A stretch of 64,000 bases of DNA, taken from assembly GCA_020634015.1 (NCBI GenBank), contig JACKCN010000001.1, positions 569,727 to 633,726 of the forward strand, given 5' to 3'. The translations under genes and the position numbers were made by a program. The notes under the pieces are model-generated. The model had not been told where the DNA came from. It made no database searches and saw nothing but the letters and a program-made list of their open reading frames with translations. This DNA is from Candidatus Delongbacteria bacterium. Lineage in GTDB: Bacteria > CAIWAD01. Of this stretch, positions 17,443-50,830 are shown one piece after another. Positions within the stretch are counted from its first letter, which is position 1. Each line of letters starts with the position of its first letter.

Positions 17443-18134
17443 TCACTGCAACCTGGCACGGCCACTCATGCTTCGAGATCGAGCACCCGCAGGGACGCCT
17501 GCTGATTGACCCCTTCTTCACGGGCAACCCGCTGGCGCGCGTGAGTCCGGCGGACTTCGACAGGCTGGACGCGATCCTCGTGACTCACGGCCACGGCGAT
17601 CACATCGGTGACACGGTGGAACTGGCGCGCCGCAGCGGGGCGCTGGTGGTCTGCAACTTCGAAATCAGCCAGTGGATGGAAACCCGGGGCGTGCGCAGCC
17701 ATGGCATGCATATCGGCGGAGGCTGGCAGTTTCCCTTCGGCCACGTCAAGCTGACCATTGCCCATCATGGCTCCACGGGGCCTTCGGGCGAAGCCCTGGG
17801 CAATCCCTGCGGCATCGTGCTCAGCGCGGGCGGCCGCAGGATCTATCACAGCGGTGACACAGGCCTGTTTCTGGACATGCAGCTCATCGGCTCCTTTCCC
17901 GCCCCCCTCGACCTGGCCCTGCTGCCCATCGGCGACAACTTCACCATGGGCGTGGACGATGCGGTCAAGGCCTGCCAGTTCCTCAAGGCCGGACTGGCGA
18001 TTCCCATGCACTACAACACATTTCCTCCCATCGAAGCCGACCCTCACGATTTTGTCCGCAAGGTGCTGGCCCAGGGTCAGCAGGCCCGCGTGCTGGCGAT
18101 TGGCGAAAGTCTCACCCTTGAGGAGTGTGATTGA
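17439..18134 (+). CDS. Metal-dependent hydrolase, metallo-beta-lactamase fold (UPF0173 family).
   Basis: The THGHGDHIGD motif is present. GTG start overlaps the kinase stop (GTGA). Confidence 0.75.
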   Translation: MITATWHGHSCFEIEHPQGRLLIDPFFTGNPLARVSPADFDRLDAILVTHGHGDHIGDTVELARRSGALVVCNFEISQWMETRGVRSHGMHIGGGWQFPFGHVKLTIAHHGSTGPSGEALGNPCGIVLSAGGRRIYHSGDTGLFLDMQLIGSFPAPLDLALLPIGDNFTMGVDDAVKACQFLKAGLAIPMHYNTFPPIEADPHDFVRKVLAQGQQARVLAIGESLTLEECD

Positions 18135-19219
18135 TGGCGGGCAATTCCTTCGGCAGCCTGTTCCGTATGACCACCGCGGGCGAAAGCCATGGCCCGGCCC
18201 AGGTGCTCATCCTCGATGGAGTGCCCGCTGGCCTGGAACTGTCCGTGGAGGACCTGCTGCCCGATCTGCGCCGCCGGCGCCCGGGCCAGTCCGCATTGAC
18301 GACACAGCGCCAGGAAGAAGACCTGCCCGAAATTCTGTCGGGAGTGCACGAAGGGCGCTGCACGGGAGCGCCTCTGACGGTGCTGGTACGCAACACGGAT
18401 GCGCGCTCGAAGGATTATGCCGAGCTGGCGAATGTGCTGCGGCCGGGACACGCCGACCAGGCCTGGCTGGCTCGTTATGGGTTGCGTGATCCGCGTGGCG
18501 GAGGCCGGGCCAGCGCGCGCGAGACGGTCGGCCGGGTGATCGCGGGCGCCGTGGCACGCAAGCTGCTGCACACCGCGGACATTCGCGTGCTGGGCTGGGT
18601 GCGGCAGGTCGGTGACTGCGTCTGCGAGCTGGCTCATCCCGATGGCGTCAGCCTGGAACAGGTGGAAGCCAGCCCCGTGCGCTGCCCGGACCCGGCAAGC
18701 TCGGCCCGGATGGTCACGCTGGTCGAGCAATGCCGTGATGCGGGGGACAGCATCGGTGGGGTGGCCGAGATCCGCGCCTGGGGAGTGCCAGCCGGGCTGG
18801 GTGAGCCGGTCTTCGACAAACTGCGCGCCGATCTGGGCAAGGCCCTTTTCAGCCTGCCCGCCGTGGTGGGTGTGGAATTCGGCGACGGCTTCGCCAGCGC
18901 GCGCCTGCGCGGCAGCCAGCACAACGACTCCTTCGTGACCCGCGCCGACGGCAGCACGGGCACCGCCAGCAATCATCACGGTGGCATCCTTGGCGGTCTC
19001 TCCAGCGGCATGCCCATCGTGATCCGCTGCGCCGTCAAGCCCACCAGTTCCATCGCCGCCAGCCAGCGCACCGTGGATACCGAGGGCCGCCCCGTGGAGC
19101 TTGCGATCACCGGACGCCACGACCCTTGCCTGCTGCCCCGCTTCATCCCCATGGCCGAGGCGATGGTGCTGGTGACCCTGGCGGATCACTGGTTGCGCCA
19201 GCGCTGCGCCCGGGTCTGA
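18134..19219 (+). CDS. aroC: Chorismate synthase.
   Basis: N-terminus MAGNSFGSLFRMTTAGESHG matches the AroC consensus. Its ATG overlaps the upstream stop (ATGA). Confidence 0.9.
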   Translation: MAGNSFGSLFRMTTAGESHGPAQVLILDGVPAGLELSVEDLLPDLRRRRPGQSALTTQRQEEDLPEILSGVHEGRCTGAPLTVLVRNTDARSKDYAELANVLRPGHADQAWLARYGLRDPRGGGRASARETVGRVIAGAVARKLLHTADIRVLGWVRQVGDCVCELAHPDGVSLEQVEASPVRCPDPASSARMVTLVEQCRDAGDSIGGVAEIRAWGVPAGLGEPVFDKLRADLGKALFSLPAVVGVEFGDGFASARLRGSQHNDSFVTRADGSTGTASNHHGGILGGLSSGMPIVIRCAVKPTSSIAASQRTVDTEGRPVELAITGRHDPCLLPRFIPMAEAMVLVTLADHWLRQRCARV

Positions 19220-19329
19220 CACCCTCGCGCCACCCCAGCATCAATCCATAGCTTCCTCGATCTCGACCTCGTGCTCGTGCTTGTGTTCGTGGCTCGTGCA
19301 CCTTGTGGTGACTCGGGTCAGCCAGGCCC

Positions 19330-20345
19330 GCCCCATGTCCTGTCATCCCCGTGAAGCGGGTCGCCCAGAATGGGGGCCCCGAGTGGTTACACCGCACACT
19401 CCCCTGCGCGGGGGGCGCTCTCTACCTTTTCTTCGCGAAGAAAAGGTAGGCCAAAAGAAGGCTCAGCAGGCCTTGCGCCGCGCAAACTTGGCCCGCGATG
19501 CGGTCCTTCGGGCCAAGCGCGGCGGCCCACATGAATGCCCGACCGCTCCGTCTCGATGGTTCCGCCACCGGCGTCACCGCTGTGGAAGAGTTTGATCTGA
19601 GGCGAGCCCCAGGTCCTACCCCCCCAAGCATGTCATTCTTGCGCAAGCAGGAACCCCGAGTGGTTGCACCGCAAGCTTTTTGCATTCGGAATCGCTGTGC
19701 GACAGACAGTCTGCGTGTCACGGATGTTGTCGCCGGTCGCCGGCAATGCGCTCCCCTGCGCGGGGGGCACTCTCTACCTTTTCTTCGCGAAGAAAAGGTA
19801 GACCAAAAGAAGGCTCAGCAGGCCCCGCGCCGCGCAAACTTGGCCCGCGATGCGGTCCGGCGAGCAAGCGCGGCGGCCCACGCTCCCTGCCCGACCGTTC
19901 CGCCTCGATGGTTCCGCCACCGGCGTCACCACTGTGGAAGAAGATTGATCTGAGGCGAGCCCCAGGTCCTGTCATCCCCCCCCAAGCATGTCATTCCCGC
20001 GCAAGCGGGAACCCCGAGTGGTTACACCGCAAGCTTTTTCGCATTCGGAATCGCTGTGCGACAGACAGTGTGCGTGTCACGGATGTTGTCGCCGGTCGCC
20101 GGCAATGCGCTCCCCTTGCGCGGGGGGCGCTCTCTACCTTTTCTTCGCGAAGAAAAGGTAGACCAAAAGAAGGCTCAGCAGACCCCGCGCCGCGCAAACT
20201 TGGCCCGCTTCGCGGTCCGGCGAGCAAGCGCGGCGGCCCACGTGAATGCCTGACCGTTCCGTCTCGATGGTTCCGCCACCGGCGTCACCACTGCGGAAGA
20301 AAATTGATCTGAGGGATTTTGTCATTCCCGCGCAAGCGGGCGTGG
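19330..20345. repeat. Tandem array of three and a half ~355-bp units. Each unit has a perfect 28-bp palindrome and a CRISPR-repeat-like hairpin.
   Basis: Unit periods are 352 and 360 bp, anchored on CCCCTGCGCGGGGGG at 19401, 19753 and 20113. The palindrome CTACCTTTTCTTCGCGAAGAAAAGGTAG is perfect at 19422-19449, 19774-19801 and 20134-20161. The hairpin GTCATTCCCGCGCAAGCGGGAACCCCGAG occurs at about 19342, 19632, 19990 and 20321. Confidence 0.85.
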
Positions 20346-20453
20346 TGGCATCGGTCCCAATCCGTGCGACATCCATGTGTCAGGTCACCCAGAGTGGCGC
20401 CCCCGGCAATGCGCTCATTTCCCGCAAGTCAGCGCGCGAAAAGGTAGACCAAA

Positions 20454-21085
20454 ACCCCATGCCCCCATCCCATCCTACCTGTCGGCGGACCTTCCCGCTG
20501 CGCGAGGGAAGGGATCGCTCGCCTCGGCACACAAGCGCTGCCTGCCAAGCCCCGAATGGGGCATCACACATCCGTAGCCCGTGGGGAATCCAAGGGCGGA
20601 TGCGTGGGTGCGCCGCCACATTCGATGCATGAAGAGAATCGCTCCGGCGCAATCCACTTCGTGGGGACACCACGGGTGATTGATGATGTGTGGTGCAACC
20701 GCTCGGGGTTCCCGCCTGCGCGGGAATGACGCACACTGTGGCCCGTGGAGATTCCACGGGTGGGCGTCAATCTATGACGTAGACACCGTAGCCCGGATGA
20801 AGCCTCCGTATCCGTCACGACACGAGAGGTGCCCGGCGCAATCCGGGGAACATGGTGAAACCATGGGATGGCATGGGGGCAGTGTCGCGGACATCAGACT
20901 TCTGGACCGTTCCGCGCGGTGCCCCCATCCCATCCCGCCTGTCGGCGGGCCTTCCCCCGCTGCGCGGGGGAAGGGGAATGTGGCTTCGCCTCGCTACACA
21001 ATCGCTGCTTGCCAAGCCCCGAACGGGGCGTCGTACATACAAGCCCGTGGGGAATCCACGGGCGGACGTACGGCGGCCAGGGGCG
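20454..21085. repeat. Second non-coding repeat family: two ~160-bp copies about 461 bp apart, with an inverted copy of the hairpin element between them.
   Basis: Copy 1 starts around 20454-20461 (CCCCATCCCATCC...) and runs to about 20617. Copy 2 is about 20922-21085. They share CTTCCC-GCTGCGC-GGGAAG and CCCGTGGGGAATCCACGGG hairpins. At 20688-20730 lies the reverse complement of GTCATTCCCGCGCA(A/G)GCGGGAACCCCGAG(T/C)GGTT(A/G)CACC. Confidence 0.7.
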
Positions 21086-21141
21086 TGGTCATCCGTGGGT
21101 GTGATGGGAAATGCCCGCAGCAAGCGGGCCGACGTTGGGGA

Positions 21142-22311
21142 TCAGGCGGTCGCGCGAAGGGCGGCGGCGGCCTGTTGCCAGTTGGCCAGTTCGGCCATGA
21201 ACTCCAGGCGCAATTGACGGGCCTCGCGCTTCAGTTCCTGGAGACGCGGGCGACGCTCGACCCGGGGCTGGCTTCTGAGTGCGTGATGCTCGCTCCAGAG
21301 CTGGCGGGCGCGCGCGTGCAGCAACTCGAGGCGCTGTTCCAGCCCCAGCAGCATCTCGCTGGCCTGGCTGCGCAGATCTTCCAGCCGGGTGGTCAGGCTG
21401 TGTTCCAGGCGGCGGCGCTGCTCCCTGAGGCGGGCCATCTGCACGGTCTCCTCGGGCACACGCTTCAGGCTCCAGGCCAGGCGGGTCTTCTCGAGCAGCC
21501 AGATCACCCACTTGCCCGGATCGAAATGCCAGGCCCGGATGCCGTTGCGATAGTCGCCGGGGAAGGTGTGGTGGTAATTGTGATAGCCTTCGCCGTAGGT
21601 GAAGAAGGCCACCAGGCCGCTGTCCCGGGCCGTGGTGCCGCTGTCGTAGGGGCGGCGGCCCAGGAAGTGGCAGAGACTGTTGATGAAGAAGGTGCCGTGA
21701 TGCACGAAGACCACGCGCGCCACCCCTCCGAAGAGGAAACCCGCCAGCGCGGCCTGGAACAGCGGACGCCCGCTGAGCAGTCCCTGGATCACGCCCACCA
21801 GAGTCGGCAGCAGCAGGCCCATGGAAATCATCAGCGCATGGATGTGCCGGTCCTGCCAGCGCACGAAGGGATCCTTCTCCAGATCGGCCACATTGCTGCG
21901 GTCCATCTTCGGGCTCTGCTCGCGCAGCAGCCAGCCCATGTGAGCGTGAAAGAAGCCCTTGTTGATGTTGTAGGGATCGTAGGGGAAGCCGTCCCGGTCG
22001 ACGTACTTGTGATGGTAGCGGTGCTCGCTGGCCCAGGTGAGAATCGAATTCTCGAAGGTGGCGGCCGCGAACAGCCCCGTGATCACACGCACCGCCTTGC
22101 GGGCCTGGAAACTGCGGTGGGCGAAGAGTCGGTGATAGCCCACGGTGATCGCCAGACCGGTGGCGTAGGCCATGACCAGAAAATGGACGAGATCGAAGGC
22201 ATGGAAGCCGTATCTGGAAATGAACCATGGCACTCCGATCACGCTGATCAGGAAGGTGGCCAAGAGGAAGAGGGTGGTTTTCCAGTTGATGGGGGGTTTG
22301 TCCTGGGACAT
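21142..22311 (-). CDS. Acyl-CoA (delta-9) fatty acid desaturase.
   Basis: TM helices plus three His boxes (HRLFAHRSF, HRYHHKY, HNYHHTF). Start placed at MSQDKPPINWK. Confidence 0.85.
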   Translation of the reverse strand: MSQDKPPINWKTTLFLLATFLISVIGVPWFISRYGFHAFDLVHFLVMAYATGLAITVGYHRLFAHRSFQARKAVRVITGLFAAATFENSILTWASEHRYHHKYVDRDGFPYDPYNINKGFFHAHMGWLLREQSPKMDRSNVADLEKDPFVRWQDRHIHALMISMGLLLPTLVGVIQGLLSGRPLFQAALAGFLFGGVARVVFVHHGTFFINSLCHFLGRRPYDSGTTARDSGLVAFFTYGEGYHNYHHTFPGDYRNGIRAWHFDPGKWVIWLLEKTRLAWSLKRVPEETVQMARLREQRRRLEHSLTTRLEDLRSQASEMLLGLEQRLELLHARARQLWSEHHALRSQPRVERRPRLQELKREARQLRLEFMAELANWQQAAAALRATA

Positions 22312-22433
22312 GCTGTGCCTTTCAGGGGAAACGAGGGTCGGGGTGCAGGAAGGTCCCTGCGGGCCCGCCCCAGTGTAGCAAGTTCGGGGACCCTGCCCCG
22401 CGTGAATCGTCTCATGGGGAGATTGTTGTGGCT

Positions 22434-23102
22434 TCAGCAGCGGGGCAAGGCCCGGAAAAACGCCTGAAGCCGTTCGGGGTCCAGAGCGCCACCGCGGCGT
22501 ACTCCGCTGCACAGATCGAGGCCAAAGGGCCCCACCCGCTCCACGGCCGTGGCAACATTCTCCGGAGTGAGGCCCCCGGCCAGCAGGACGGGCACCGACA
22601 GCTCCTCACGAATCCGGCGGCTGAGGGCCCAGTCATGTACCCGGCCGGTGCCGCCCAGTTCGGGGACACGCGCTCCCGGATTGCCCGAATCCAGCAGGAT
22701 CAGGCGCGCGCCCGCCCTTTCAAGCTCCCGGGCCTCGTCCAGTGACTCGGGCCCCTGCACGTGCACGACCGGAACCAGCCCGATGCCGGGCAAAGCCTGC
22801 CTCAGCTCCTCCAGCAGGCCGGGAGGCACGGGACTGACCAATTGGATCACATCGCAGCCCGTGCTGCGTTGCTGGGCCACGATCGTCTCCAGATCGAGCG
22901 AGGCCGTCAGCAGGAAACAGCGCACCGGGGGCGGCACCTGCGCGGCGATGCGCGCGATGCACGATTCGGAAATCACTCCCGGACCCGAGGGCATGTTGGA
23001 CACCAGCCCCAGGGCGTGCGCGCCCGCCGCCACGGCCAGGCGGGCCTCCTGGGCGCTGGATATGCAGCAGATCTTGATTCGCGGGGTGTGACAGGCGTCC
23101 AA
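22434..23102 (-). CDS. trpF: N-(5'-phosphoribosyl)anthranilate isomerase.
   Basis: PRAI pattern: RIKICCISSAQEA at the N-terminus and a TIM-barrel length of 222 aa. Confidence 0.75.
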   Translation of the reverse strand: MDACHTPRIKICCISSAQEARLAVAAGAHALGLVSNMPSGPGVISESCIARIAAQVPPPVRCFLLTASLDLETIVAQQRSTGCDVIQLVSPVPPGLLEELRQALPGIGLVPVVHVQGPESLDEARELERAGARLILLDSGNPGARVPELGGTGRVHDWALSRRIREELSVPVLLAGGLTPENVATAVERVGPFGLDLCSGVRRGGALDPERLQAFFRALPRC

Positions 23103-32448: not shown

Positions 32449-32649
32449 ATGGCCAGTCGCAAAGCCTTCCTGCTGCGTGTCAGCCCTTCCCTGCTGAAGG
32501 CCGTGCAGCGCTGGGCGGACGACGATCTTCGATCCTTGAACGGGCAGATCGAGTTCCTGCTGCGAGAACAACTGCGCCGCGCGGGACGCCCGATTCCCGC
32601 CGAGAACGATTCCGCTGATCCGGACCCCGATCAGGCCGACACGAATTGA
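32449..32649 (+). CDS. Small Arc/ribbon-helix-helix-like DNA-binding protein (putative).
   Basis: 66 aa, basic N-terminus (SRKAFLLRVSPSLLKAVQRWA). The ATG is 14 bp after the Band-7 stop. Confidence 0.4.
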   Translation: MASRKAFLLRVSPSLLKAVQRWADDDLRSLNGQIEFLLREQLRRAGRPIPAENDSADPDPDQADTN

Positions 32650-33200: not shown

Positions 33201-33271
33201 CTGGGCTGCAGGGATTCGAACCCCGATAGCTGGAACCAGAATCCAGAGTCCTACCATTGGACGACAGCCCA
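33201..33271 (-). tRNA. tRNA-Gln, anticodon CUG.
   Basis: Reverse complement: TGGGCTG TC GTCC AATGGTA GGAC T CTGGA TTCTGGT TCCAG CTAT CGGGG TTCGAAT CCCTG CAGCCCA G. Seven-bp acceptor stem with U1-A72 as in bacterial tRNA-Gln. Anticodon loop TT-CTG-GT. TTCGAAT T-loop. Confidence 0.85.
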
Positions 33272-33831: not shown

Positions 33832-35328
33832 TTGTTGTCCATGACTCACGACCGCTCCATCAGCCTGCGACCGTTGTTTCTGGTACTTCTGCTGGCCCTG
33901 GGCCTGCGGTTGGCCTTCTTCCAGGGATTTGCCTTTTCCGACGATGCCCACTACGCCTGGTTGGCCGCCCATCCCGGTGCCCAGTTCGGGGTGGACTACC
34001 CGGGCTATCCGGTCATGCCCCTGCGCGTGGGTCACCTGTTCCTTCTGGGACTGAGCCAGCACTGGTTCGGTCCCGGTGACTGGGGTCTGGCCTTCTTCCC
34101 GCTGATGTTCTCGCTGGCCATGATCGCCATTGCCTGGCGCCTGGGATGCCTGCTCGGCGGACACGGACACGTGGGCAATGCAGCGGCCCTGCTGCTGGCC
34201 CTGCTGCCGGTGGACATCGCCCTGAGCACGCTGGCCTTCGCCGATCTTTCCGCAGCCGCCATGCTGGGCCTGGGAGTCTGGTTGCTGCTGGAGGCTCGTC
34301 ACACGGCCCGGCACTGGCTGCGGGTACCGGGCGCACTGGTACTGGGACTCTCGCTGCTCTGGAAGGAAACCGTGCTCTGGCTGGTGCCGGTGATTCTGGC
34401 GATCCAGTTCGGCATCTGGTTGCGTGATTTCCGCCGCGGCACTCCCCTGCGACCGGATGCAACTCTGCTGGCCGCCGGACTGGGCATTCTGCTGGTGCTG
34501 GGCCTGGAGTCCCTGGTATACGCACTCCTTCACGGCGACCCGCTCTGGCGCTTTCACCAGATGGAACTGAACACGCGGCTCTGCCCCGACGACTTCTTCA
34601 AACTGGGCAGCGCCAAGGGGTACGCCACACCCGAGGAACGACCCGCCGCACTGGCACGCCTGCTGTTGTGGAGCAAGCCCAAGGCCCTGTTCCTGCGCCG
34701 CAATACGCTGTTCATTCTGGCTCTGGCTCTGGTGCAGCTACTGCGCAGACTTCGCCGACATGATCCGGGGCCGCAGGGACTGTGGTTCGGTGGATTGCTG
34801 CTGATGTTCCTCTTCGGCAGCACATCTCTGCAGCGCTACCAGCCACTGCCGCTGGACCTGCCATGGTACATCTACCCACTCTTCCTGCCGGCCGCCCTGC
34901 TGGCCGGTGAACTGCTGGCGGAACTGAGCTGGCGCCGGTTTCGCTGGCTGCTGGCACCCTTGCTGGCGCTCAGCCTCTGGATGTGTCTGGATTTCCGGAA
35001 CTACTTCGACCACTCCGGATTGCAGGAAGTGCGCGCTGCGCTGTCGGCGTCGCCCACAACTCCCGTGTACGGAGATCCCTTCAGCCTGCTCTCGCTGGAT
35101 CATCTGGATGGCCAGCCTTCCGTCAGCCGCGGCATTCCACTGGGCGACAGCGGTCCTGCCGGTCTGGATCTCCCCCCGCCAGGCGCTCTCCTCCTGCTGA
35201 ACCCCGGCAATCTGCACGAGCTGCGTGCCCAGGGGCATGACCCGGTTTCAGTGCCTGCTGGGTCCAATCCGGATTGGACTTTGCTCAGCTCTGGCGGGGG
35301 CTTCCTGCTGTTCCAGCGACTGCACTGA
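33832..35328 (+). CDS. GT39/GT83-like (PMT/ArnT family) membrane glycosyltransferase.
   Basis: 498 aa with about 11 TM helices. The N-terminal loop DDAHYAW resembles the DE/DD motif of PMT-type transferases. Confidence 0.7.
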   Translation: MLSMTHDRSISLRPLFLVLLLALGLRLAFFQGFAFSDDAHYAWLAAHPGAQFGVDYPGYPVMPLRVGHLFLLGLSQHWFGPGDWGLAFFPLMFSLAMIAIAWRLGCLLGGHGHVGNAAALLLALLPVDIALSTLAFADLSAAAMLGLGVWLLLEARHTARHWLRVPGALVLGLSLLWKETVLWLVPVILAIQFGIWLRDFRRGTPLRPDATLLAAGLGILLVLGLESLVYALLHGDPLWRFHQMELNTRLCPDDFFKLGSAKGYATPEERPAALARLLLWSKPKALFLRRNTLFILALALVQLLRRLRRHDPGPQGLWFGGLLLMFLFGSTSLQRYQPLPLDLPWYIYPLFLPAALLAGELLAELSWRRFRWLLAPLLALSLWMCLDFRNYFDHSGLQEVRAALSASPTTPVYGDPFSLLSLDHLDGQPSVSRGIPLGDSGPAGLDLPPPGALLLLNPGNLHELRAQGHDPVSVPAGSNPDWTLLSSGGGFLLFQRLH

Positions 35329-35339
35329 CTTCTTCATCC

Positions 35340-36245
35340 ATGGATGCTGGCCTTGCGGCAGGCATGACGCCAGCGGAGGGCTGGCAGGCATGACGCCAGC
35401 GGAGGGTGCTGGCCTTGCAGCAGGCGTGACGCCAGCCGTGGATGCTGGCCTTGCAGCAGGCGTGACGCCAGCCGTGGATGCTGGCCTTGCAGCAGGCGTG
35501 ACGCCAGCCGTGGATGCTGGCCTTGCAGCAGGCGTGACGCCAGCCGTGGATGCTGGCCTTGCAGCAGGCGTGACGCCAGCGGAGGATGCTGGCCTTGCAG
35601 CAGGCATGACGCCAGCGGAGGGTGCTGGCCTTGCAGCAGGCATGACGCCAGCGGAGGGTGCTGGCCTTGCAGCAGGCGTGACGCCAGCGGAGGATGCTGG
35701 CCTTGCAGCAGGCGTGACGCCAGCGGAGGGTGCTGGCCTTGCAGCAGGCATGACGCCAGCGGAAGGGGCTGGCATGGCAGCAGGTGTTATGCCAGCGGAG
35801 GGTGCTGGCCTGGCAGCAGGCTTGACGCCAGCCGTGGATGTTGGCCTTGCAGCAGGCATGAAACCAGCCGTGGATGTTGGCCTTGCAGCAGGCGTGGAGA
35901 CAGCGGTGGGTGCTGGCCTTGCAGCAGGCGTGACGCCAGTGGAGGGTGCGGGCGTGGCAGCAGGCATGACGCCAGCGGAGGGTGCTGGCCTTGCAGCTGG
36001 CATGACGCCAGCGGAGGGTGCTGGCCTGGCAGCAGGCGTGACGCCAGCCGTGGATGCTGGCCTTGCAGCAGGCATGACGCCAGCGGAGGATGCTGGCCTT
36101 GCAGCAGGCATGACGCCAGCGGAGGGTGCTGGCCTTGAAGCAGGCGTGACGCCAGCCGTGGATACTGGCCTTGCAGCAGGCATGAAGCCAGCGGAGGATG
36201 CTGGCCTGGCAGCAGGCGTGACGCCAGCGGCGAAGTTGGCCTGGT
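35340..36245. repeat. 36-bp tandem repeat array of about 25 copies. It is open in frame on both strands, giving AGVTPAVDAGLA on + and TPAARPASTAGV on -.
   Basis: Consensus unit is GCAGGCGTGACGCCAGCCGTGGATGCTGGCCTTGCA. Copies differ at a few positions (GTG/ATG, GCC/GCG, GTG/GAG, GAT/GGT). Track ORFs 35225-36253 (+) and 35248-36183 (-) are both products of this array. Neither has a signal peptide. Both show GC3 near 50%. Confidence 0.8.
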
Positions 36246-39200
36246 TTACTTGAGCAGGATCATCTTGGCCGTCTGACTGAAGCCATTGGACCCAGGAAGG
36301 TCCTGGTCAACCGTCATGCGATACAGATAGACACCGCTTGCAGCCGAAGCAGCATCCCAGGAAAAGCCATGGCTGCCCGCGCTCAGCACCTGGTCTGCCA
36401 GGCTGGCCACTTCCTGCCCACGCAGATTGTATACTTTGAGGGAGACCGCTGCGGACCGGGGAAGCTGAATATCAATGCGGGTCCGAGGATTGAAGGGATT
36501 GGGATAGTTCTGTCCCAACTCGAAGCGGGCTGGCAACTCGGATTCTTCCCGCACATCCGTGGAAGAAGACCTGACATCGATCCAGTTCAGGTTGAACTGC
36601 CCGACATGAAGTCCCACATGCATGATCTGCTCACCGGCAGCCAGAAAGACATCCGGGATCTGCAGTTCCTGCCAGAACTGCCAGCCACCCGTCACCGGAA
36701 CGGGCACCAGCCCCGTCAGGTCCACACCGTTGACCTCAATGTGCAGACTGCCTCCACCAGGGACGGAAGAAACGGATGGCACCAGGGCATACATGCCCGC
36801 TTCCGCCACCTCGATCGTGTACTCCAGCCACTCCCCATCCTCAATCCAGCCGATGTCGTAGCCCCCGCCTTGATCATTGGATGCCTCGATGTCAACACCT
36901 TCGGTGCTGCGGAAAGGCACTCCGAGGTTCATCGCATCCACGTCGTGATAGGCCACCCCCTCGCCGCCTTCATCGTAGAACTCTGCCTGGATCAGTCCGG
37001 GAATCTGGAATGGAGTTCCCAGGTAGGGCGTCCCATTCTCAAGCACAGTGATCGAGACACTGTCTGAAGACGAGATGTTGAGATTGTTGGTAACGGCAAG
37101 GGAAACGGTATACGTTCCTGTTTCGGTGAAGACATGCTCGACATCAGGCGCTTGTGATGTGTCTCCGTCCCCAAAATCCCACGCATGGCTGAGCGGGGAA
37201 TCATTGGGATCAAAACTGTTGCTTCCGGTGAACAAGACACTCAATGGAGCCTTCCCGGATGTTCTGCTCGGCAACAACAAGGCCACCGGGGAATCCGGAT
37301 CCACGGGTGAGGTGCTGAAAGCCGCCGTCTGGTGTGGGCCCACCAGCAGGGAGAAGCCGTCCGAGAACGTCACCATCCGCTCCTGGGATCCGGCATTGAA
37401 AGCGACGTAGGTCAGATGGCCCGCGGGATCCCTGAAAACGGAGTACGTCGGAATATCTGCAGCAATGGCGGTTTCCACCTGCCCCATCTTTTTCAGATTG
37501 TACAACCAGTGGTATGTATGCGCACGGGACTCGCCATCGAAGGGTTCATACTCGATGTCTGCGTGATACAGCGTCACTGCCAGATCCGGATCTGACAGTG
37601 CCAGGTACTCCCAGAGGATATCCTGCCAGACAGTCGGTTCCCCGTTCCGTTCGGAAACAACTTCGGCGTAGTTGTCCAAGACATAGGCTGGATTCCTTCC
37701 CAGATACAGGGAGCCGCTTGTGACAGGAAGCATGTTGATTCCGTGGATGAACTCGGGTTCAGCGCCGAACCAGGTGGAATGCACGCCCTTTCCGCCCCAG
37801 ACCATGCCGATCGCCGTGTGCGGATAATCCTGGGGAAACACCTCGTTGTCCACATCGAACCAGTAGTGGTCCACGGCGGATGCCTCGTTGGCATGCAGGA
37901 AGATGCCCAGGTCACGGATCTCCGGCTGATTGGTGATCTCCCCCCAGAGGACGACCGCAGAAGCGAAGTTCATCGATTCTGAACTGGATTCCTGATTGTT
38001 GCCCTCCGCAAAGTCGCCATGGCCGGCCGCCCAGGAATGCCCGGCATAGGCATCAAAGGTTCTCAGAAATGGGAACTCTGTATCACTGCGATCCCAGTTG
38101 TCACAATCCTTGATCAGCAGATTCACCATTCCTCCCCACTGACTCGGGGAGGCCCAGGCACTGTCGAACTGCGCAATGGTCGCGGCGCTCATGATGGCGT
38201 AACTGGCATGAAAGTGATGATCATTGATCTGGTCGTCCGCCCCGAATCCGGAGGGATACCCTGTGAGCACATCCCAATTCTCGTCATAGGAGTACTCCTG
38301 CGAGCCGCCCACCGTGAACAAATCCTCCAACCGGACTTTGACCTCATCCAGAAAGTGGTCACGCTCAGCCGTGGCACCAAGCTGGTCGGCGATCTGAGCC
38401 AGATGCGCGAAGCGCGCCATCGCCTTTCCGTTTTCGTAAGTCGGTTCGATGGACAGAGTTTCGCCCGCCACGTCCTGCACATGGTTCAGAAGCACCGTGC
38501 GGTTGTAGTTTCCTTGATCGGGCAGGGCGGGCAGTATTCCGGAAAACTGCAGTTCGGTCGTGAAGGAATTGCCCTCGAGCAATTTCATGGTCCCACGCGG
38601 AGAGTGATAGGTATGGTTCAGCAGCGGGCTGTCCGTATTGAGCCATTGATGCCGATACAGCGCGGTCAAGGTCTGATTCACATTGGTCGCGAAACTGTCT
38701 CTCAGTACGGTCTCATAGGTATAGGTATTCGTGAGCCGCGAGGACGACTCGTCGTACTGCCACTCGATGCGGCTGTCCGTCACGAAAGCGTAGGCGTGGC
38801 TGCGAAACAGCTCAAGCGTCGCCGGACTCGTGTCGGGAAGCAGCGCAACGGAGAGATAATCCTTGCCGTCCAGAGTCGACTGGAAGGTGCTGGTTCCGGA
38901 CCATGTCGAGCCTGTCGGCGCGAAAACACCGTAGTGCTTGCCGCTGATCGTGATCCCCAGTACTTCATTCTGATTGTACCAGATCACGGGAGTCTGTGCG
39001 CTTGCAACAACCGCATTGCCGCCGGTGATTCTGAAGAACGCCCAGGGAAGTCCGTGTCCCAGAGTGGCTTCCATGGATATCGGCCCATCTTCCCACAGAG
39101 CCGTGACTGTCCAATCCCCATAGTGATGGGTCAGTGTCTGGACAGCTGACAATCCGGCAACGCCAATGGTCAGCTGGGCAGCATATGGATACAGAAAATC

Positions 39201-39554
39201 ATCGGCTGCGTAGAGATGATCGGTTGTGTATCCGATTTCCAGACCACTTGAGACGGCCTTGAAATTCAAGGGGTGTGCGTACAGAATGTTGGAGTACGAA
39301 GAGCCGAAGAAGGGGTAAATCAGGCTGCTCCAGAAATCGTTGGTTTGAACAGGCTGGTCAAATGCTGCGGATACTTTCGGAGTCGCATCCGCGCCATTGA
39401 AATTCCGTGGCCCCACTCCACCGGGTGGCAAGGACGTGCTGTAACTTCCAAGGCCAACCGGAACGGATTGTCCGGCAGCGCTCGCAGAATACAGGCAGAT
39501 CAGGAACAAGGATCCAATACTCTGTTTGACTGATTTCAACGCATTCACATTCAT
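36246..39554 (-). CDS. Secreted GH81 endo-beta-1,3-glucanase with PKD and CBM6-like domains and a T9SS CTD.
   Basis: Signal peptide MNVNALKSVKQSIGSLFLICLYSASAAG. GH81 signatures (INDHHFHASY, NNQESSSESMNFASA). PKD domain (SHAWDFGDGDTSQAPDVEHVFTETGTYTVSLAVTN). CBM6-like beta-sandwich. C-terminal NYPNPFNPRTRIDIQL...GVYLYRM. Confidence 0.85.
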   Translation of the reverse strand: MNVNALKSVKQSIGSLFLICLYSASAAGQSVPVGLGSYSTSLPPGGVGPRNFNGADATPKVSAAFDQPVQTNDFWSSLIYPFFGSSYSNILYAHPLNFKAVSSGLEIGYTTDHLYAADDFLYPYAAQLTIGVAGLSAVQTLTHHYGDWTVTALWEDGPISMEATLGHGLPWAFFRITGGNAVVASAQTPVIWYNQNEVLGITISGKHYGVFAPTGSTWSGTSTFQSTLDGKDYLSVALLPDTSPATLELFRSHAYAFVTDSRIEWQYDESSSRLTNTYTYETVLRDSFATNVNQTLTALYRHQWLNTDSPLLNHTYHSPRGTMKLLEGNSFTTELQFSGILPALPDQGNYNRTVLLNHVQDVAGETLSIEPTYENGKAMARFAHLAQIADQLGATAERDHFLDEVKVRLEDLFTVGGSQEYSYDENWDVLTGYPSGFGADDQINDHHFHASYAIMSAATIAQFDSAWASPSQWGGMVNLLIKDCDNWDRSDTEFPFLRTFDAYAGHSWAAGHGDFAEGNNQESSSESMNFASAVVLWGEITNQPEIRDLGIFLHANEASAVDHYWFDVDNEVFPQDYPHTAIGMVWGGKGVHSTWFGAEPEFIHGINMLPVTSGSLYLGRNPAYVLDNYAEVVSERNGEPTVWQDILWEYLALSDPDLAVTLYHADIEYEPFDGESRAHTYHWLYNLKKMGQVETAIAADIPTYSVFRDPAGHLTYVAFNAGSQERMVTFSDGFSLLVGPHQTAAFSTSPVDPDSPVALLLPSRTSGKAPLSVLFTGSNSFDPNDSPLSHAWDFGDGDTSQAPDVEHVFTETGTYTVSLAVTNNLNISSSDSVSITVLENGTPYLGTPFQIPGLIQAEFYDEGGEGVAYHDVDAMNLGVPFRSTEGVDIEASNDQGGGYDIGWIEDGEWLEYTIEVAEAGMYALVPSVSSVPGGGSLHIEVNGVDLTGLVPVPVTGGWQFWQELQIPDVFLAAGEQIMHVGLHVGQFNLNWIDVRSSSTDVREESELPARFELGQNYPNPFNPRTRIDIQLPRSAAVSLKVYNLRGQEVASLADQVLSAGSHGFSWDAASAASGVYLYRMTVDQDLPGSNGFSQTAKMILLK

Positions 39555-39833
39555 CTGAGCAGTTCCATTGATGGTGCGGACATCATTGCTGGGCACGGGT
39601 CTGCGATTCTTGTTGCGATATGCCCACAACATCCTTGGTTGAGTCGCGACCGCCCAGTCTAGCAGTTTCGGTTGACCTGCCTCGAAACATTGAAGATACA
39701 GGCGGCGACGCGAGTGGATCACATCACTTAAATCAGACCACAGGCTGGTCCATCCGGCAAGCCTGCTTCATGGAATGGAAAGCCCCGCCTGCAGGATTGC
39801 AGACGGGGCTTTGCTCGAACTGAGACCAGCTTC

Positions 39834-42800
39834 CTACTTGATCAGCATCATCTTGCCGACCGAATCGAAGAGGCTGCGCCCGTCGGCGGACGCCACGTGG
39901 ATCCGGTAGAAGTAGACACCGCTCGAGAGGCTGCTGCCGTCAAAGATCACATCGTGGGTGCCGGCGGGGCGCATGCCGCTCACCAGACTCTGCATGTGCT
40001 GACCCAGCATGTTGTAGACATCCAGGCTCACCAGTCCCTGCTCGGGAAGGGCATAGCGGATCACGGTGCTGGGGTTGAAGGGGTTGGGATAGTTGCTTTC
40101 GAGGGCCCAGGCCGTCGGCAGACGCAGGGCGTCACGCTGGACATCCGTGGTCTGGCAGGGAGCCGTGTACTCTTCCACCGGGTGCGCGAGGCCATTGGTC
40201 CAGCCCACGAACAGGCGTCCATCATCACTCAGTGCCAGACCATGAGCTTCGCTGAGTCCGCTGGGGCAGAAATCGCCACGCGCATCCACGCTGCCGTCTC
40301 CCAGATCAAGGAAGCACTCCAGATACCCGGTGCCCACGTGCAGGGCCACCAGCTGATCGGAGCCTTCGTTGTAATCCAGACCGGCCGCGCCGCTGCCACC
40401 GGCTTCCGACCAGGGAACGGGAATCACGTCCAGTCCAATCGGGTTGGCCGCGTCGGACACGTCAAGGCGCACGAATTCATCAATCGCACCATTGCTGCAG
40501 ATGGCCCAGAGGACCTCGCCATCCTCGTCGAAGGCCAGGCCCGTGGGCATGCGACCGGTCGCCACATCGAGAAGGGCCGGGGTGTGGGCGCCGATCAGCG
40601 CACCGCTGGCGCTCACATGTGAGACGCCACCACTCCAGGAAACCCAGAAACTGCCATCGCGGGAATCATGGGCAATGCCCGAGTAGTCGTGTCCGATGGG
40701 CAGAACGAAAATGCTGCCGACCACGCCGGTATCGCTGTCTTCCATCACCATTCTGTTCACTCCGCTGGCCAGCCAGACCAGAGTGTTGGCATCGATCCAG
40801 TCACCGTCGCTGAGATGATCCATGCCGAACAGGCCGTTGCCATTCACGTTCTGGATCAGCTGGGCCGTGTGGCTGCAGCTTGCGGCGGTCAGGATCTCGA
40901 CCGTATCGAAGGCCGTGTCGTCTTCGGTGGACTCAACCGTCAGCAGCACCAGATCCGTGAAGCTGGCCGGCACTTCCGGCACATGCACGCGCACACCCAG
41001 GTCAAAGAGATCCTCGTACTGCATCACGGGCAGGGCGGTGATCTCGGCCCAGTCGGCATTGATGTCGTGGAAGGTCACATCCCAGGCATTGCCTTCGCTG
41101 ACAAGTGAGAAGGCGCTGGCATTGTCACCGCGGTTCTCGACTTCCAGTTCGTATTCGGCGTAGCCACCGGTCAGGCCAACGCCCTGAAGATTGTCGGGGC
41201 GCACGCGCACGGCGTAGGGGCCCGAGGGACCGATCACATTGAAACCGAACCAGATCGCGCTCTGGTCGTGCGGCAACCAGCCCTGACCGTCGAAACTGGC
41301 GCTGAAGCCCTGTCCACCGCTGGCGTCTTCCTGGCCAATCGTGCAACTGAGGATGTCCAGTGGCGCCAACAGGGTGTCGTAGTTGATCCGGACGGCTTCC
41401 TCGTTGCTGTCGAGAATCACCTGGGCCGTGATCTGTCCGGTGCCTCCGTACTCGAAGACCTGATCGAAAGTCACGATGAACATGCCGTCCTGGCTGCCGT
41501 AGGTCACTGTGCCGCCCGTGGCAGGGTTCAGGTCATCCCAGAAGAAGGACACGACACCATTGGGCGTGGCGGCATTGGGCAGTTGCTGGTTGGCCAGCGA
41601 GGTCAATCCGGTGGGATCGAAGGCGATCGAGCCATTGGAGGCGATGTAGACCTCGGTGTACTCCACACCATAGTGCGTCCAGGGGAAGCCGATCTCGAAG
41701 GGGCCGACGAAACTGTCGTCCGTCAGCGTGACGGGGTTTGGATTCTCGATCGTGACCCAGTCGTACTCCACCGCCCCATCGGCATCGCTGGTGGACCAGA
41801 AATAGCCCCCGGCATCGGGTCCGCCCTGGACCAGCACGATGGTCAGCAGCACCACGGTTTCGTCGCTGCGGTTGCCATCGCCCTGGCTGGTGGCCGTGAC
41901 GGTGATCGTGGCATTGGGCTGAGCCGGATTCTCGGGAATGGTCAGCTCAAGTTCGATTTCCTGGGAGTCGCCGACGGCGACGCTCGGGGTCACGTTGCTC
42001 AGCTCGCCATTGATCAGGATATCCACTTCCACGCCGTTGTCGGCCGTGGCCTGAATCACGAAGGAATCGGGCAGCAGCCCCTGGTTGAACACGTCCAGGA
42101 AGGCACTCACCTGGCTGTCGGCAGGTCCGGTGGCGGTCACGCCGTCCTCGAGGGCCACGAAGTAGTTCGGCGGTGGCGAAAGCTCGAAGCGCAGGGTCAA
42201 GTCGTCGGAGGGGAGCCAGGGCTCGCCATCCAGTACGACCTGGATCCCATCCTCGCCCGTGTAATCCTCGATACCGATGGTGCAGGAGGTCACGTCCAGT
42301 GGCGCCACCAGCGCATCGTAATTCAGGAAGATCTGGTCATTGTCGAAATCGAAGACCACCTGGGCCCGCACGGTGCCCGTGCCCCCGTACTCCACCACGG
42401 CATCGTAGGTGATCACGAAACGGCCATCACCATCGGTGCCGTAGTACACCGAACCACCCGAACCCGGGTTGAGGTCATCCCAGAACAGTGCGATGATCCC
42501 GTTGGGAACACCCGCCGTGGGAATGGCCGTGTTGCTGAGACTGGTCATGCCCGCAGCATCGAATCCGATCATGCCATTGCTGCCGACGTAGATCTGGGTC
42601 TGGGGCGTGCCATAGAAACCGATCGTGCCGTTCATGTCGAAGGGGCCGGCCACACTGTCGTCCGTGAGTGTCACGGGAGTGCGGTCCTGCGGATCCAGCT
42701 CCACGAAGAAGTATGGTGTTCCGTTGGGGTCGGCCGAGCTGTACCACGTGTTGCCGAAGCTGTCGGACCCATTGGTGGTCACCACCAACACGGTGGATTG

Positions 42801-50528: not shown

Positions 50529-50757
50529 GGTGCCTCCTGTCAAGAGTTCGCTCGTATGATACACTGTCTGATCGTTGCGGCCGACGGCCCCATTGCCCTT
50601 CTGGAAGGACTCCGGAAGGATGACTCGTACAAGGGGCCTTGCTGTGAAAACAAGGAAGTGCCGGGAAGATACTTTCCCCTGCCAACGGATGACAGCAAGA
50701 TTCCGCATTCGCTGAAGTTGAAGAAGAGGGTGCCGCTCTCTATCTTCAGGGCCTCTC

Positions 50758-50830
<73 letters not shown>

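Follow-up and report, generated by a model that had tools for sequence, protein, structure and literature searches.

A perfect palindrome in triplicate as the probable hairpin module of a NIME-like intergenic repeat array in an uncultured high-GC bacterium

What is the role of a perfect 28-nt palindrome that occurs in three identical copies, about 355 bp apart, between two convergent bacterial genes? The palindrome, CTACCTTTTCTTCGCGAAGAAAAGGTAG, lies in a 64-kb stretch of DNA, the whole of which was analysed here and is referred to as the window. An initial annotation had proposed that it is a site under selection rather than a neutral repeat, and had named a dimeric-regulator operator, a nucleoid-protein site, a replication or partition sequence, and a hairpin as candidate functions. 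Here we argue that the palindrome is most probably (at a rough probability of 0.7) the hairpin module, termed module C, of a lineage-specific modular intergenic repeat family, that is, a structured element rather than a regulator site.

Exact searches recover the 28-mer at all three positions previously given for it, with spacings of 352 and 360 bp. No further copy was found in the rest of the window with up to 3 mismatches allowed, and shuffled sequence gave 0 matches to the 28-mer. The copies are:

19422-19449, no strand assigned: palindrome copy 1, a 12-bp stem with a CGCG loop when single-stranded
19774-19801, no strand assigned: palindrome copy 2 (exact search)
20134-20161, no strand assigned: palindrome copy 3 (exact search)

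The 28-mer is a perfect 14+14 palindrome, which extends to 30 nt in copies 2 and 3. The degraded half-site noted earlier at about 20431 is likewise real (GAAAAGGTAGACCAAAA at 20438-20454). The flanks ascribed to every copy are less uniform than had been described: copy 1 is followed by GCCAAAAGAAGG and not by ACC, and the CCCCTTGCGCGGGGGG in front of copy 3 contains an additional T. The palindrome had also been called AT-rich in a 66% GC genome, for which the values obtained here are 63.6% GC in the window and 43% GC in the 28-mer.

Three identical palindromes occur about 355 bp apart because they are carried in a composite unit of about that length, with the module order A-B-C-D-E, that has been tandemly amplified. 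A tandem repeat with a period of 352 (352/360 bp), 2.6 copies, and 92% matches is detected by TRF at 19399-20314, within a 1.9-kb gap between the convergent aroC and desaturase genes. The repeats that fill this gap are absent from the remaining ~62 kb of the 64-kb window. The gap is organized as follows:

19220-21141, no strand assigned: repeat-filled 1.9-kb gap from the stop of aroC (plus strand) to the stop of the fatty-acid desaturase gene (minus strand) (ORFs, Pfam, repeat families)
19324-19398, plus strand: degenerate module A (NTS-like hairpin and CCCCGAGTGGTTACACCGCA) before unit 1 (repeat families D10 and D11, module map)
19399-20314, plus strand: tandem array of the composite unit (TRF, unit alignment)
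19401-19467, plus strand: module C copy 1, consisting of the GC hairpin CCCCTGCGCGGGGGG, the palindrome, and then the purine tract (sequence, module map)
19451-19461, plus strand: purine tract CCAAAAGAAGG copy 1, the AAAAGAAG of which mirrors the purine arm GAAGAAAA (sequence comparison)
19468-19602, plus strand: modules D and E copy 1, GC-rich hairpins (module map)
19630-19676, plus strand: module A, a degenerate NTS/dRS3-like hairpin, GTCATTCTTGCGCAAGCAGGAA... (module map)
19677-19751, plus strand: module B copy 1 (module map)
19753-19819, plus strand: module C copy 2 (module map)
19803-19813, plus strand: purine tract CCAAAAGAAGG copy 2 (sequence)
19820-19955, plus strand: modules D and E copy 2 (module map)
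19988-20034, plus strand: module A, TGTCATTCCCGCGCAAGCGGGAACCCCG, a match to the Ssn-related motif with 25 of 28 Neisseria NTS consensus positions (pattern comparison, PMC11893778)
20035-20110, plus strand: module B copy 2 (module map)
20111-20179, plus strand: module C copy 3 (module map)
20163-20173, plus strand: purine tract CCAAAAGAAGG copy 3 (sequence)
20180-20314, plus strand: modules D and E copy 3 (module map)
20320-20340, plus strand: truncated module A (module map)
20438-20454, plus strand: remnant of a fourth module C, right arm and ACCAAAA only, fused to module F (module map)
20455-20625, plus strand: module F copy 1, present at other loci too (repeat families, module map)
20689-20730, minus strand: inverted module A, in which CGTCATTCCCGCGCAGGCGGGAACCCCG has 26 of 28 NTS consensus positions (repeat families, consensus comparison)
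20920-21066, plus strand: module F copy 2, 83% identical (repeat families, module map)

All modules but one are co-oriented, and all copies of module C are direct, not inverted. The first reading of this locus had overlooked the register, treating as isolated sites what are parts of a 352-bp-period tandem repeat. As a lesson for annotation, when perfect palindromes recur at even intervals, a long-period tandem repeat beneath them should be looked for first.

Among the three unit copies, 29 of 207 aligned columns are variable, and on that background a given 28-column stretch is invariant with a probability of about 0.015-0.03. The invariant run around the palindrome spans 32 columns, and the next longest spans 27. 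Given the high background invariance of the tandem units, the perfection of three copies, from which selection had originally been argued, is weak evidence when taken alone.

The same modules recur on other contigs of the population, and the module map covered the window plus seven of these, which are short metagenome contigs that are placed in the population only by their GC content, the sample series they come from, and the repeats they share. Modules A, B, C, D, E, F, and G build mosaic arrays at four or more other loci, and wherever modules D and E occur, their copies show 86-95% identity, which gives the family a young appearance. Downstream of aroC, contig L035 carries 2 units followed by A joined directly to F, and the window carries 3 units plus the remnant; array copy number differs between strains. 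Unit 2 of L037 is a different variant of the unit. L050 contains 2 tandem G-Cv-D-E units, and L053 holds both module C alleles (see below) in one array. Array modules lie beside an MFS gene in L049 (with a module upstream of a divergent gene), after HSP20 in L051, and against an IS4 end in L052, and in 3 of 4 informative arrays the modules lie downstream of a gene that runs in their own direction. A scan of GTDB representative genomes (the source genome not being among them) with CCTTTTCTTCNNGAAGAAAAGG gave matches only in unrelated MAGs, while no match was obtained in a JGI metagenome scan with the right arm and tract or among viral contigs, plasmids, and phages, and a literature search by sequence string returned nothing relevant. 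It had been suggested that a generic REP-like element would speak against a selected site, and in kind, by way of a modular repeat family dispersed over other loci, such an element is what we find.

That the stem is nevertheless non-accidental is indicated by a second allele of module C, CCACCTTTCTTTGGAC...GTCCAAAGAAAGGTGG, which differs from the original by four compensatory double substitutions: pairs 2/27, 9/20, 10/19, and 13/16 are altered on both sides with pairing kept. One pair is broken in some copies and intact in L051, L052, and L053. The centre of the variant is 6-7 nt longer, and the two alleles are carried on nearly identical D-E backbones. Further, in unit 2 of L037 the 22-nt core and downstream tract are intact between flanks that are roughly 80% identical, and the outer pairs have decayed on one side only. 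The four compensatory double changes therefore argue for a maintained hairpin and not an operator. Folded as DNA, the hairpin reaches -11.1 and -17.7 kcal/mol (z of -4.5 and -5.2 against shuffles), and whole-unit RNA folding of both strands is marginally better than shuffles (z of about -2.0 and -2.3). RNAalifold found no compensatory pairs in modules D and E across 11 copies. Because D and E lack covariation and whole-unit folding is marginal, structure is demonstrated only for module C.

What is maintained would differ from a duplex site for a dimeric protein: it is probably a stem-loop in single-stranded nucleic acid, carried by extruded or single-stranded DNA, or by RNA read through from the upstream gene. 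The arrays may expand and shrink via homologous or unequal recombination between modules. Co-orientation of the modules, together with the position of 3 of 4 arrays after the 3' end of a co-directional gene, suggests a strand-specific role, which could be that of a structured 3'-UTR spacer or of a single-stranded DNA structure where NTS-type hairpins and Ssn-type nucleases act.

A further feature is common to both alleles. The purine tract CCAAAAGAAGG just downstream of the stem mirrors the purine arm in a triplex-compatible geometry, the original stem and tract reading CTACC...GGTAG-ACCAAAAGAAGG, and may fold back onto the stem. The register of the mirror relation is the same for either allele, two of the triads being swapped (permutation P of about 6.5e-4), and the triads fall in one register in 8 of 8 cases for the original allele and 7 of 7 for the variant.

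The alternative that survives best is that of a functionless recent duplication, in which the palindrome is neutral and its symmetry is kept mutationally by hairpin-templated repair or intrastrand template switching. The three-way invariance within the window is only mildly unusual, the high identity of D and E everywhere fits a young duplication, and the RS elements of Neisseria have been considered possibly inert spacers (PMC1797815). We nonetheless judge this reading unlikely, as it has to accommodate four compensated pairs between alleles on nearly identical D-E backbones, a core and tract that stay intact in a copy with about 80% identity in its upstream flank, and covariation of the third element, which hairpin-templated repair leaves unexplained.

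More doubtful is the proposal that hairpin and mirror tract form a tertiary-structure module (an intramolecular purine-motif triplex or two-state switch) which a DPANN tRNA-linked mini-element might have in common with the bacterial arrays by convergence or transfer. T-A.A and C-G.G triads can be drawn in fixed register in both alleles, with the swaps at pairs 9 and 10, and the identical 22-nt hairpin core with CAAAAGAAGG also occurs in archaeal tRNA introns and trailers of DPANN, in at least 20 cases; a JGI metagenome scan with core and tract returned archaeal tRNA loci only. However, the bacterial alleles number only two, the tract of the variant also repeats the purine arm perfectly in direct orientation, such that other models fit, and clostridial repeats with the same stem are mostly without the mirror tract. 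The bacterial-archaeal similarity, moreover, ends at the motif, and 596 Gbp of sequence would be expected to contain a 10-bp arm match by chance. Nor are RNA purine-motif triplexes known to be stable. The archaeal loci retrieved are near-identical copies, with no variant-arm members among them. They have the identical CCTTTTCTTC-NN-GAAGAAAAGG stem followed 9-17 nt downstream by CAAAAGAAGG, but are situated inside or just after tRNA genes, in genomes of 36-54% GC, with another linker length and no further common sequence, whereas the bacterial copies are without tRNA-like features (Rfam). The cross-domain identity of hairpin and tract with the DPANN tRNA intron core is an odd coincidence. At a similarly low probability, the AT-rich hairpin and mirror tract could constitute a discrete module, either triple helix or two-state fold, that recurs across domains, on the bacterial side in NIME-like arrays with an FCB-group host and on the archaeal side as the conserved core of mobile-looking non-canonical DPANN tRNA introns and trailers, whether as a horizontally moving mini-element or as a convergent structure recognised by shared machinery. 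With H-DNA mirror repeats the motif has in common an arm of pyrimidines, an arm of purines, and a mirror purine tract further downstream, antiparallel, with predicted A.A-T and G.G-C triads; it differs in that its duplex part is a palindrome's hairpin instead of a simple mirror repeat, and it has no known biological role in bacteria.

A tRNA-like minihelix (a 12-bp stem and then ACCA) was also considered and rejected, given the decayed outer pairs of L037 and the GCCA of copy 1. At gathering score, Rfam identifies two tRNAs only in the window, and nothing credible was found between 19150 and 21250 at E up to 10.

The 28-mer admits a division into 11 + 6 + 11 bp (CTACCTTTTCT TCGCGA AGAAAAGGTAG), the layout of a dif/Xer-like core site for a tyrosine recombinase, in which 11-bp arms enclose a centre of 6-8 bp; repeated integration of small circles could then have produced the units, a scheme with which strain-variable copy number would agree. 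We consider this very improbable: the palindrome is not where the units meet (C follows A directly ahead of unit 1 but follows B in units 2 and 3), the units are 8% diverged, and the variant allele has altered arms and a centre enlarged by 6-7 nt. There is also no evident likeness to the dif XerD arm, the window contains no recombinase gene, and the sites are multi-copy and multi-locus (three in tandem plus other loci) as against a single copy at the terminus.

Equally slight is the probability of a bidirectional intrinsic terminator separating the convergent genes. A stable stem does lie between them, but neither strand has a U-tract after the stem (the plus strand is A-rich after it, and the minus strand U-rich before it), the stem is AU-rich and not GC-rich, and in L049 the module is also upstream of a divergent gene. 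Terminator scanning gave weak matches only, with the U-rich arm serving as tail, and no sigma-70 promoter-like sites were detected in the same scan.

The chances are poorer still for an operator or binding array at which a dimeric protein (a transcription factor, nucleoid protein, or ParB/SopB-like protein) would recognise the duplex palindrome, despite its perfect two-fold symmetry, its three in-register copies, and its AT-richness relative to the genome. The operator, nucleoid-protein, and replication or partition options of the initial annotation lack support in that the copies lie where two convergent genes end, a region with 0 promoter-like sites, are by-products of the duplication of a whole 355-bp unit, and belong to a dispersed family, leaving the hairpin as the sole option that fits. 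In other arrays, different half-sites occupy the same position, with 4 positions per arm changed, complementarity preserved, and the centre 6-7 nt longer; a single protein would therefore not tolerate both alleles. The one-sided decay of the outer pairs in L037 also speaks against an operator, and there is no adjacent DNA-binding gene, the only candidate being an RHH-like ORF (identified by eye) 12 kb off at 32449-32649. Finally, a small hydrophobic peptide of type I toxin-like character, repeated in tandem and encoded on the minus strand with the C-terminus ...LLLVYLFFAKKR*, has hardly any claim: minus-strand ORFs do terminate inside the palindrome in 3 of 3 units, but there is no conserved start, the upstream residues vary between units, the units contain non-3n indels and stops, GC3 amounts to 0.57-0.74 where real genes have about 0.8, YLFFAKKR* is encoded identically on both strands because the sequence is palindromic, and the peptide is lost in the variant allele.

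Returning to the palindrome as the hairpin module of a repeat family, the closest parallel is provided by module A. It matches 25-27 of 28 Neisseria NTS consensus positions, including the oriented CGTCA head; exact dRS3 (ATTCCCN8GGGAAT) occurs in L035, L037, L052, and L053, and the window has dRS3-like copies with 19 of 20 positions (GGGAAC) at 19993 and 20708. As module A is a near-copy of the NTS/dRS3 hairpin, the arrays have a NIME-like mosaic architecture, and by its sequence the region is best described as NIME-like, its host being a 64% GC bacterium outside Neisseria that carries type IX secretion signals. NIME consist of dRS3 repeats flanking RS elements (PMC1797815). Like them, the present arrays are intergenic and intersperse several unrelated repeat families with a 20-bp ATTCCCN8GGGAAT-type hairpin, the mosaic of families between the hairpins recurs at several loci, repeat number is strain-variable at a syntenic locus (here 2 versus 3 plus a remnant after aroC), an IS element is inserted in one array, and low-GC troughs lie within units between the hairpins (PMC1797815). 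Unlike in NIME, about 310 nt (B-C-D-E) separate the A modules, as compared to RS elements of 50-150 bp (range 19-214), all modules but one are co-oriented, module C exhibits compensatory stem evolution, which is undescribed for RS elements, and the host is an uncultured, 64% GC, T9SS-bearing bacterium and not Neisseria.

The aroC protein is at most 77% identical to anything beyond the same population, and its named relatives, from other phyla, are at most 67% identical. Proteins of the window carry T9SS sorting domains, which we take to point to the FCB group as the source. NIME arrays have previously been described as Neisseria-specific, and NTS-like hairpins have been linked to Ssn single-strand nucleases, and found in other bacteria, only in 2025. 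The window would present a full NIME-style mosaic in an uncultured high-GC bacterium unrelated to Neisseria, with an NTS hairpin all but identical to the neisserial one, and the compensatory evidence in one spacer module offers a handle on whether RS-type spacers are inert or structural.

Similarities extend to REP/BIME, REPIN-RAYT, and BOX systems, which also comprise short hairpin-forming extragenic repeats in mosaics, frequently lie where genes end (3'), and serve as targets for IS elements; the pneumococcal BOX is in addition built of modules, of which the middle one varies in tandem. REPs tend to be rich in GC, in contrast to the AT-rich module C. There are, unlike in REP and REPIN-RAYT systems, which reach tens to hundreds of copies per genome and have a cognate RAYT gene, no inverted doublets and no RAYT gene at hand, and a REP-like 5' GT[AG]G head was rejected on position, as GTAG or GTGG forms the 3' end of the stem.

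The NTS and Ssn-related motif (SRM) system offers a last comparison. Module A fits both the NTS consensus and the SRM pattern, HGTCWYN(0-2)YYVSBRHN(0-5)WNVSBRGN(0-2)RNCYNB (PMC11893778), which it matches at 19989 (plus strand), at 20731 (minus strand), and in L035, L037, L049, and L051-L053. In that system the ssnA gene is often flanked by SRMs. The present case differs in that no ssnA homologue was seen in the 64 kb (no GIY...YIG ORF for the GIY-YIG nuclease Ssn, cd10448, by motif regex only), and that the 28-nt palindrome is itself non-SRM, with no SRM match overlapping any of its three copies. A 36-nt tandem repeat at 35.4-36.2 kb also matches the SRM pattern, probably spuriously.

Here we show that the 28-nt palindrome CTACCTTTTCTTCGCGAAGAAAAGGTAG is real and that it recurs because a composite unit has been tandemly duplicated within a mosaic array resembling the Neisseria intergenic mosaic elements (NIME). 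As the initial annotation reported, three exact copies are present, and no further copy was found at up to three mismatches in the window or in shuffled sequence. The palindrome is perfect, reaching 30 nt for copies 2 and 3, and the degraded half-site is likewise genuine. The flanks, described as alike in every copy, differ in that GCC rather than ACC follows copy 1 and an extra T lies in the GC hairpin upstream of copy 3. For the 28-mer described as AT-rich in a 66% GC genome, measured values are 43% GC for the 28-mer and 63.6% for the window.

Features of the array region (window coordinates)
18134-19219, plus strand: chorismate synthase gene (aroC)
19399-20314: the one array found by Tandem Repeats Finder (period 352, 2.6 copies, 92% matches)
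19422, 19774 and 20134: exact palindrome copies (module C)
19988-20034, plus strand: NTS/dRS3-like hairpin (module A)
20438-20454: degraded palindrome half-site
20455-20625 and 20920-21066: module F, a 170-nt repeat adjoining module A
20689-20730, minus strand: NTS/dRS3-like hairpin (module A)
21142-22512, minus strand: fatty-acid desaturase gene

Because the palindromes simply lie in register within the tandem array, the array explains the three copies. Among the unit copies 29 of 207 aligned columns differ, so that a given 28-column stretch would be invariant with P ~0.015; 5 of 180 windows of this length in the three-copy alignment are invariant, and the invariant run at the palindrome spans 32 columns, versus 27 for a run elsewhere in the unit. 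Since this is only mildly unusual against background variation, perfect retention, previously read as a sign of selection, by itself points only weakly to constraint within the window.

The array occupies a 1.9-kb gap between the stops of two convergent genes in a neighbourhood of ordinary housekeeping genes, and other repeats fill the remainder; the gap repeats, palindrome and half-site have no copy in the remaining 62 kb of the window. Scans yielded no Rfam family at the array, no sigma-70-like promoter in its region and, at the palindrome, no T-run after a stem.

The source organism was not among the matches of a scan of 185,579 representative genomes, and its aroC has one relative at 98% and all others at ≤77%. 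Contigs of the same population were obtained from ENA metagenomes via exact-protein look-ups; every one reaching the region downstream of aroC stops in or shortly past the array, as expected of an assembly-breaking repeat. Copy number is polymorphic, since contig L035 carries two units and then module A joined directly to F, and the window three units and a decayed fourth. In the second unit of contig L037 the upstream part is only ~80% identical and the outer left arm has changed, uncompensated, from CTACC to CACCC; the 22-nt core, 4-nt linker and CCAAAAGAAGG are all intact.

Five more contigs (L049-L053) were recovered by searching protein collections with one spurious ORF from the repeat, a usable query because gene callers place false ORFs on such sequences. 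The arrays adjoin an MFS gene (L049), follow a gene end as two tandem 405-bp units (L050), or lie 3' of HSP20 (L051); of four informative arrays, three come after a co-directional gene. L053 holds both hairpin alleles of module C (C and its variant, Cv) in a single array, and all modules are co-oriented except one A.

Module order of the arrays
Window: A'-C-D-E-A-B-C-D-E-A-B-C-D-E-A'-x-C(half)-F-A(inverted)-F
L050: G-Cv-D-E-G-Cv-D-E-G
L051: F'-G'-Cv-D-E-A...F'
L053: E-A-B-C-D-E-A-F-G-Cv

The initial annotation had named membership of a generic REP-like element, at hundreds of copies genome-wide, as counting against a site under selection, and in kind this is what we find: the array modules recur at other loci and are a dispersed, modular repeat family. 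Module F, also present in L035, L051, L052 and L053, contains CCCCATGCCCCCATCCCATCC and two hairpins, CCTTCCC...GGGAAGG and CCCGTGGGGAATCCACGGG. At the end of contig L050, just past the G-Cv-D-E array, is a 9-nt tandem repeat (CCACGTATC; L050:1228-1271).

Module A, (C/T)GTCATTCCCGCG(C/A)A(A/G)GCGGGAA(T/C)CCCG, agrees at 25-27 of 28 positions with the Neisseria Transformation Sequence (NTS) consensus CGTCATTCCCGCGMAVGCGGGAATCYRG and fits the published degenerate Ssn-related motif (SRM) pattern. In four contigs the dRS3 that it encloses is exact (ATTCCCN8GGGAAT); outside the window the hairpin lies at L035:12533, L037:2699, L052:506, and L053:53 and 446. NIME arrays consist of dRS3 hairpins between many RS element families; the number of repeats differs among strains, an IS is occasionally inserted, and RS elements contain low-GC troughs (PMC1797815). 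All of these features, mixed families included, are present here. L052 starts with the C-terminal end of an IS4-family transposase (L052:1-260), and the IS end abuts a variant hairpin cut near its apex, of which only GGAC-GGG-GTCCAAAGAAAGGTGG is left; the IS had thus inserted into the hairpin, a likeness to both REP and NIME arrays. The array differs from NIME in its composite spacing of ~310 nt and in its non-Neisseria, 64% GC host. T9SS type A sorting domains score above the curated cut-off in two large proteins, which we take to indicate an FCB-group host. A motif check of the 64-kb window revealed no GIY-YIG ssnA-like gene.

In G-type arrays the palindrome's position, directly upstream of a near-identical module D, is taken by another hairpin, CCACCTTTCTTTGGAC-(loop)-GTCCAAAG(A/C)AAGGTGG. 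In a structure-based comparison of the alleles, pairs 2/27, 9/20, 10/19 and 13/16 are altered on both sides and still paired; at pair 8/21, three copies have T.C and another three T-A, and the variant apex is 6-7 nt longer. Both alleles fold much more stably than shuffled sequence, as DNA at -11.1 (z -4.5) and -17.7 (z -5.2) kcal/mol and as RNA at -16 to -24 kcal/mol. Modules D and E (86-95% identity) exhibit no covariation. Double changes that stay paired imply that it is the stem that is maintained and not two half-sites for a protein, and we consider it probable (roughly 0.7) that the palindrome is a structurally maintained hairpin module of the repeat family. Among the roles offered initially, the compensated pairs favour the hairpin; operator and partition readings are excluded by the maintained stem together with the location between gene ends. 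A Xer-like site (11-6-11 parse) is very unlikely given the enlarged variant centre and unit junctions away from the palindrome. A coding reading fails on GC3 (0.57-0.74 vs ~0.8 in genes), stops, and indels of lengths not divisible by three, the small ORFs ending in the palindrome arising because a palindromic sequence reads YLFFAKKR-stop on both strands.

The hairpin module would act as a structure in single strands, either of DNA or of read-through RNA, and its purine strand may fold back on the stem. A purine tract follows the stem in every module C copy. In the original allele the tract AAAAGAAG mirrors the purine arm GAAGAAAA exactly; the variant has an internal G shifted in arm and tract alike, keeping the mirror in register (pair 9, T-A.A to C-G.G; pair 10, C-G.G to T-A.A). 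This geometry is that of an antiparallel purine-motif triplex, with 8/8 original and 7/7 variant triads; tract permutations match both with P ~6.5e-4 before allowing for model choice. Since the tract of the variant also repeats its purine arm perfectly in direct orientation, and pairing with the pyrimidine arm is an alternative for it, triplex formation by stem and tract is kept as a hypothesis only.

The 20-nt core has 31 genome matches among the 185,579 representatives, of which 12 are DPANN archaeal and also carry CAAAAGAAGG 9-17 nt downstream. The DPANN stem, CCTTTTCTTC-NN-GAAGAAAAGG, is that of module C; it lies 5-6 nt 3' of a tRNA or forms the core of a ~70-nt non-canonical intron (T-loop or elsewhere).

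Loci in other genomes and metagenomes sharing the stem
DPANN, stem and tract: L003 (5703-5752), L008, L010 (tract CAAAAAGAAGG, one extra A relative to CAAAAGAAGG), L012, L015-L018, L021, L024, L028, L029, L040-L048 (L046 on the minus strand)
Two repeat families in Oscillospiraceae and Gallacutalibacter MAGs: L004, L006, L013, L026, L027, L031; L011, L019, L020, L022, L030

All nine matches of a second metagenome scan share the core and tract form, by design of the query. At L017 the motif stands in reverse orientation beside a flanking 17-nt duplication of the tRNA 3' end, and looks like a mobile mini-element. Bacterial and archaeal copies share no similarity beyond the motif. In a database of the size searched, chance would be expected to produce a common 10-bp arm but not the common extra 10-mer, unless the stem structurally dictates the tract or the motif moved between lineages. 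A cross-domain reading of hairpin plus tract has low probability. Two unrelated multi-copy, multi-hairpin families with the same 10-bp AT-rich stem occur in Oscillospiraceae and Gallacutalibacter MAGs, and in the former the stem precedes a second, small hairpin, AAGC-(A-rich loop)-GCTT (loop AAAAGAA in L031).

Elsewhere in the window, a 66-residue ORF (32449-32649, plus strand; MASRKAFLLRVSPSLLKAVQRWADDDLRSLNGQIEFLLREQL...) has an Arc/RHH-type DNA-binding look by eye and no NCBIfam match; it lies 12 kb from the array, to which nothing seen links it. A 36-nt tandem repeat (GCAGGCGTGACGCCAGCGGAGGATGCTGGCCTTGCA; 35384-36230, 23.5 copies, 89% matches) overlaps a putative coding ORF (35225-36253, plus strand) with 12-residue repeats AGLAAGVTPA(V/E)(D/G); its 16 SRM regex matches on the minus strand are probably spurious. 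Three very large secreted-protein ORFs (36246-39722, 39834-44024 and 44304-50762, all minus strand) lie where GC is lower (0.55-0.57 at 37-40 kb). A T9SS type A sorting domain terminates two of the three, and in the 2152-residue secreted protein a NIDO-like stretch is the only Pfam match. A weak cumulative GC skew minimum falls near 35 kb, beside a tRNA gene (33201-33271) and the 36-nt repeat (~33-36 kb).
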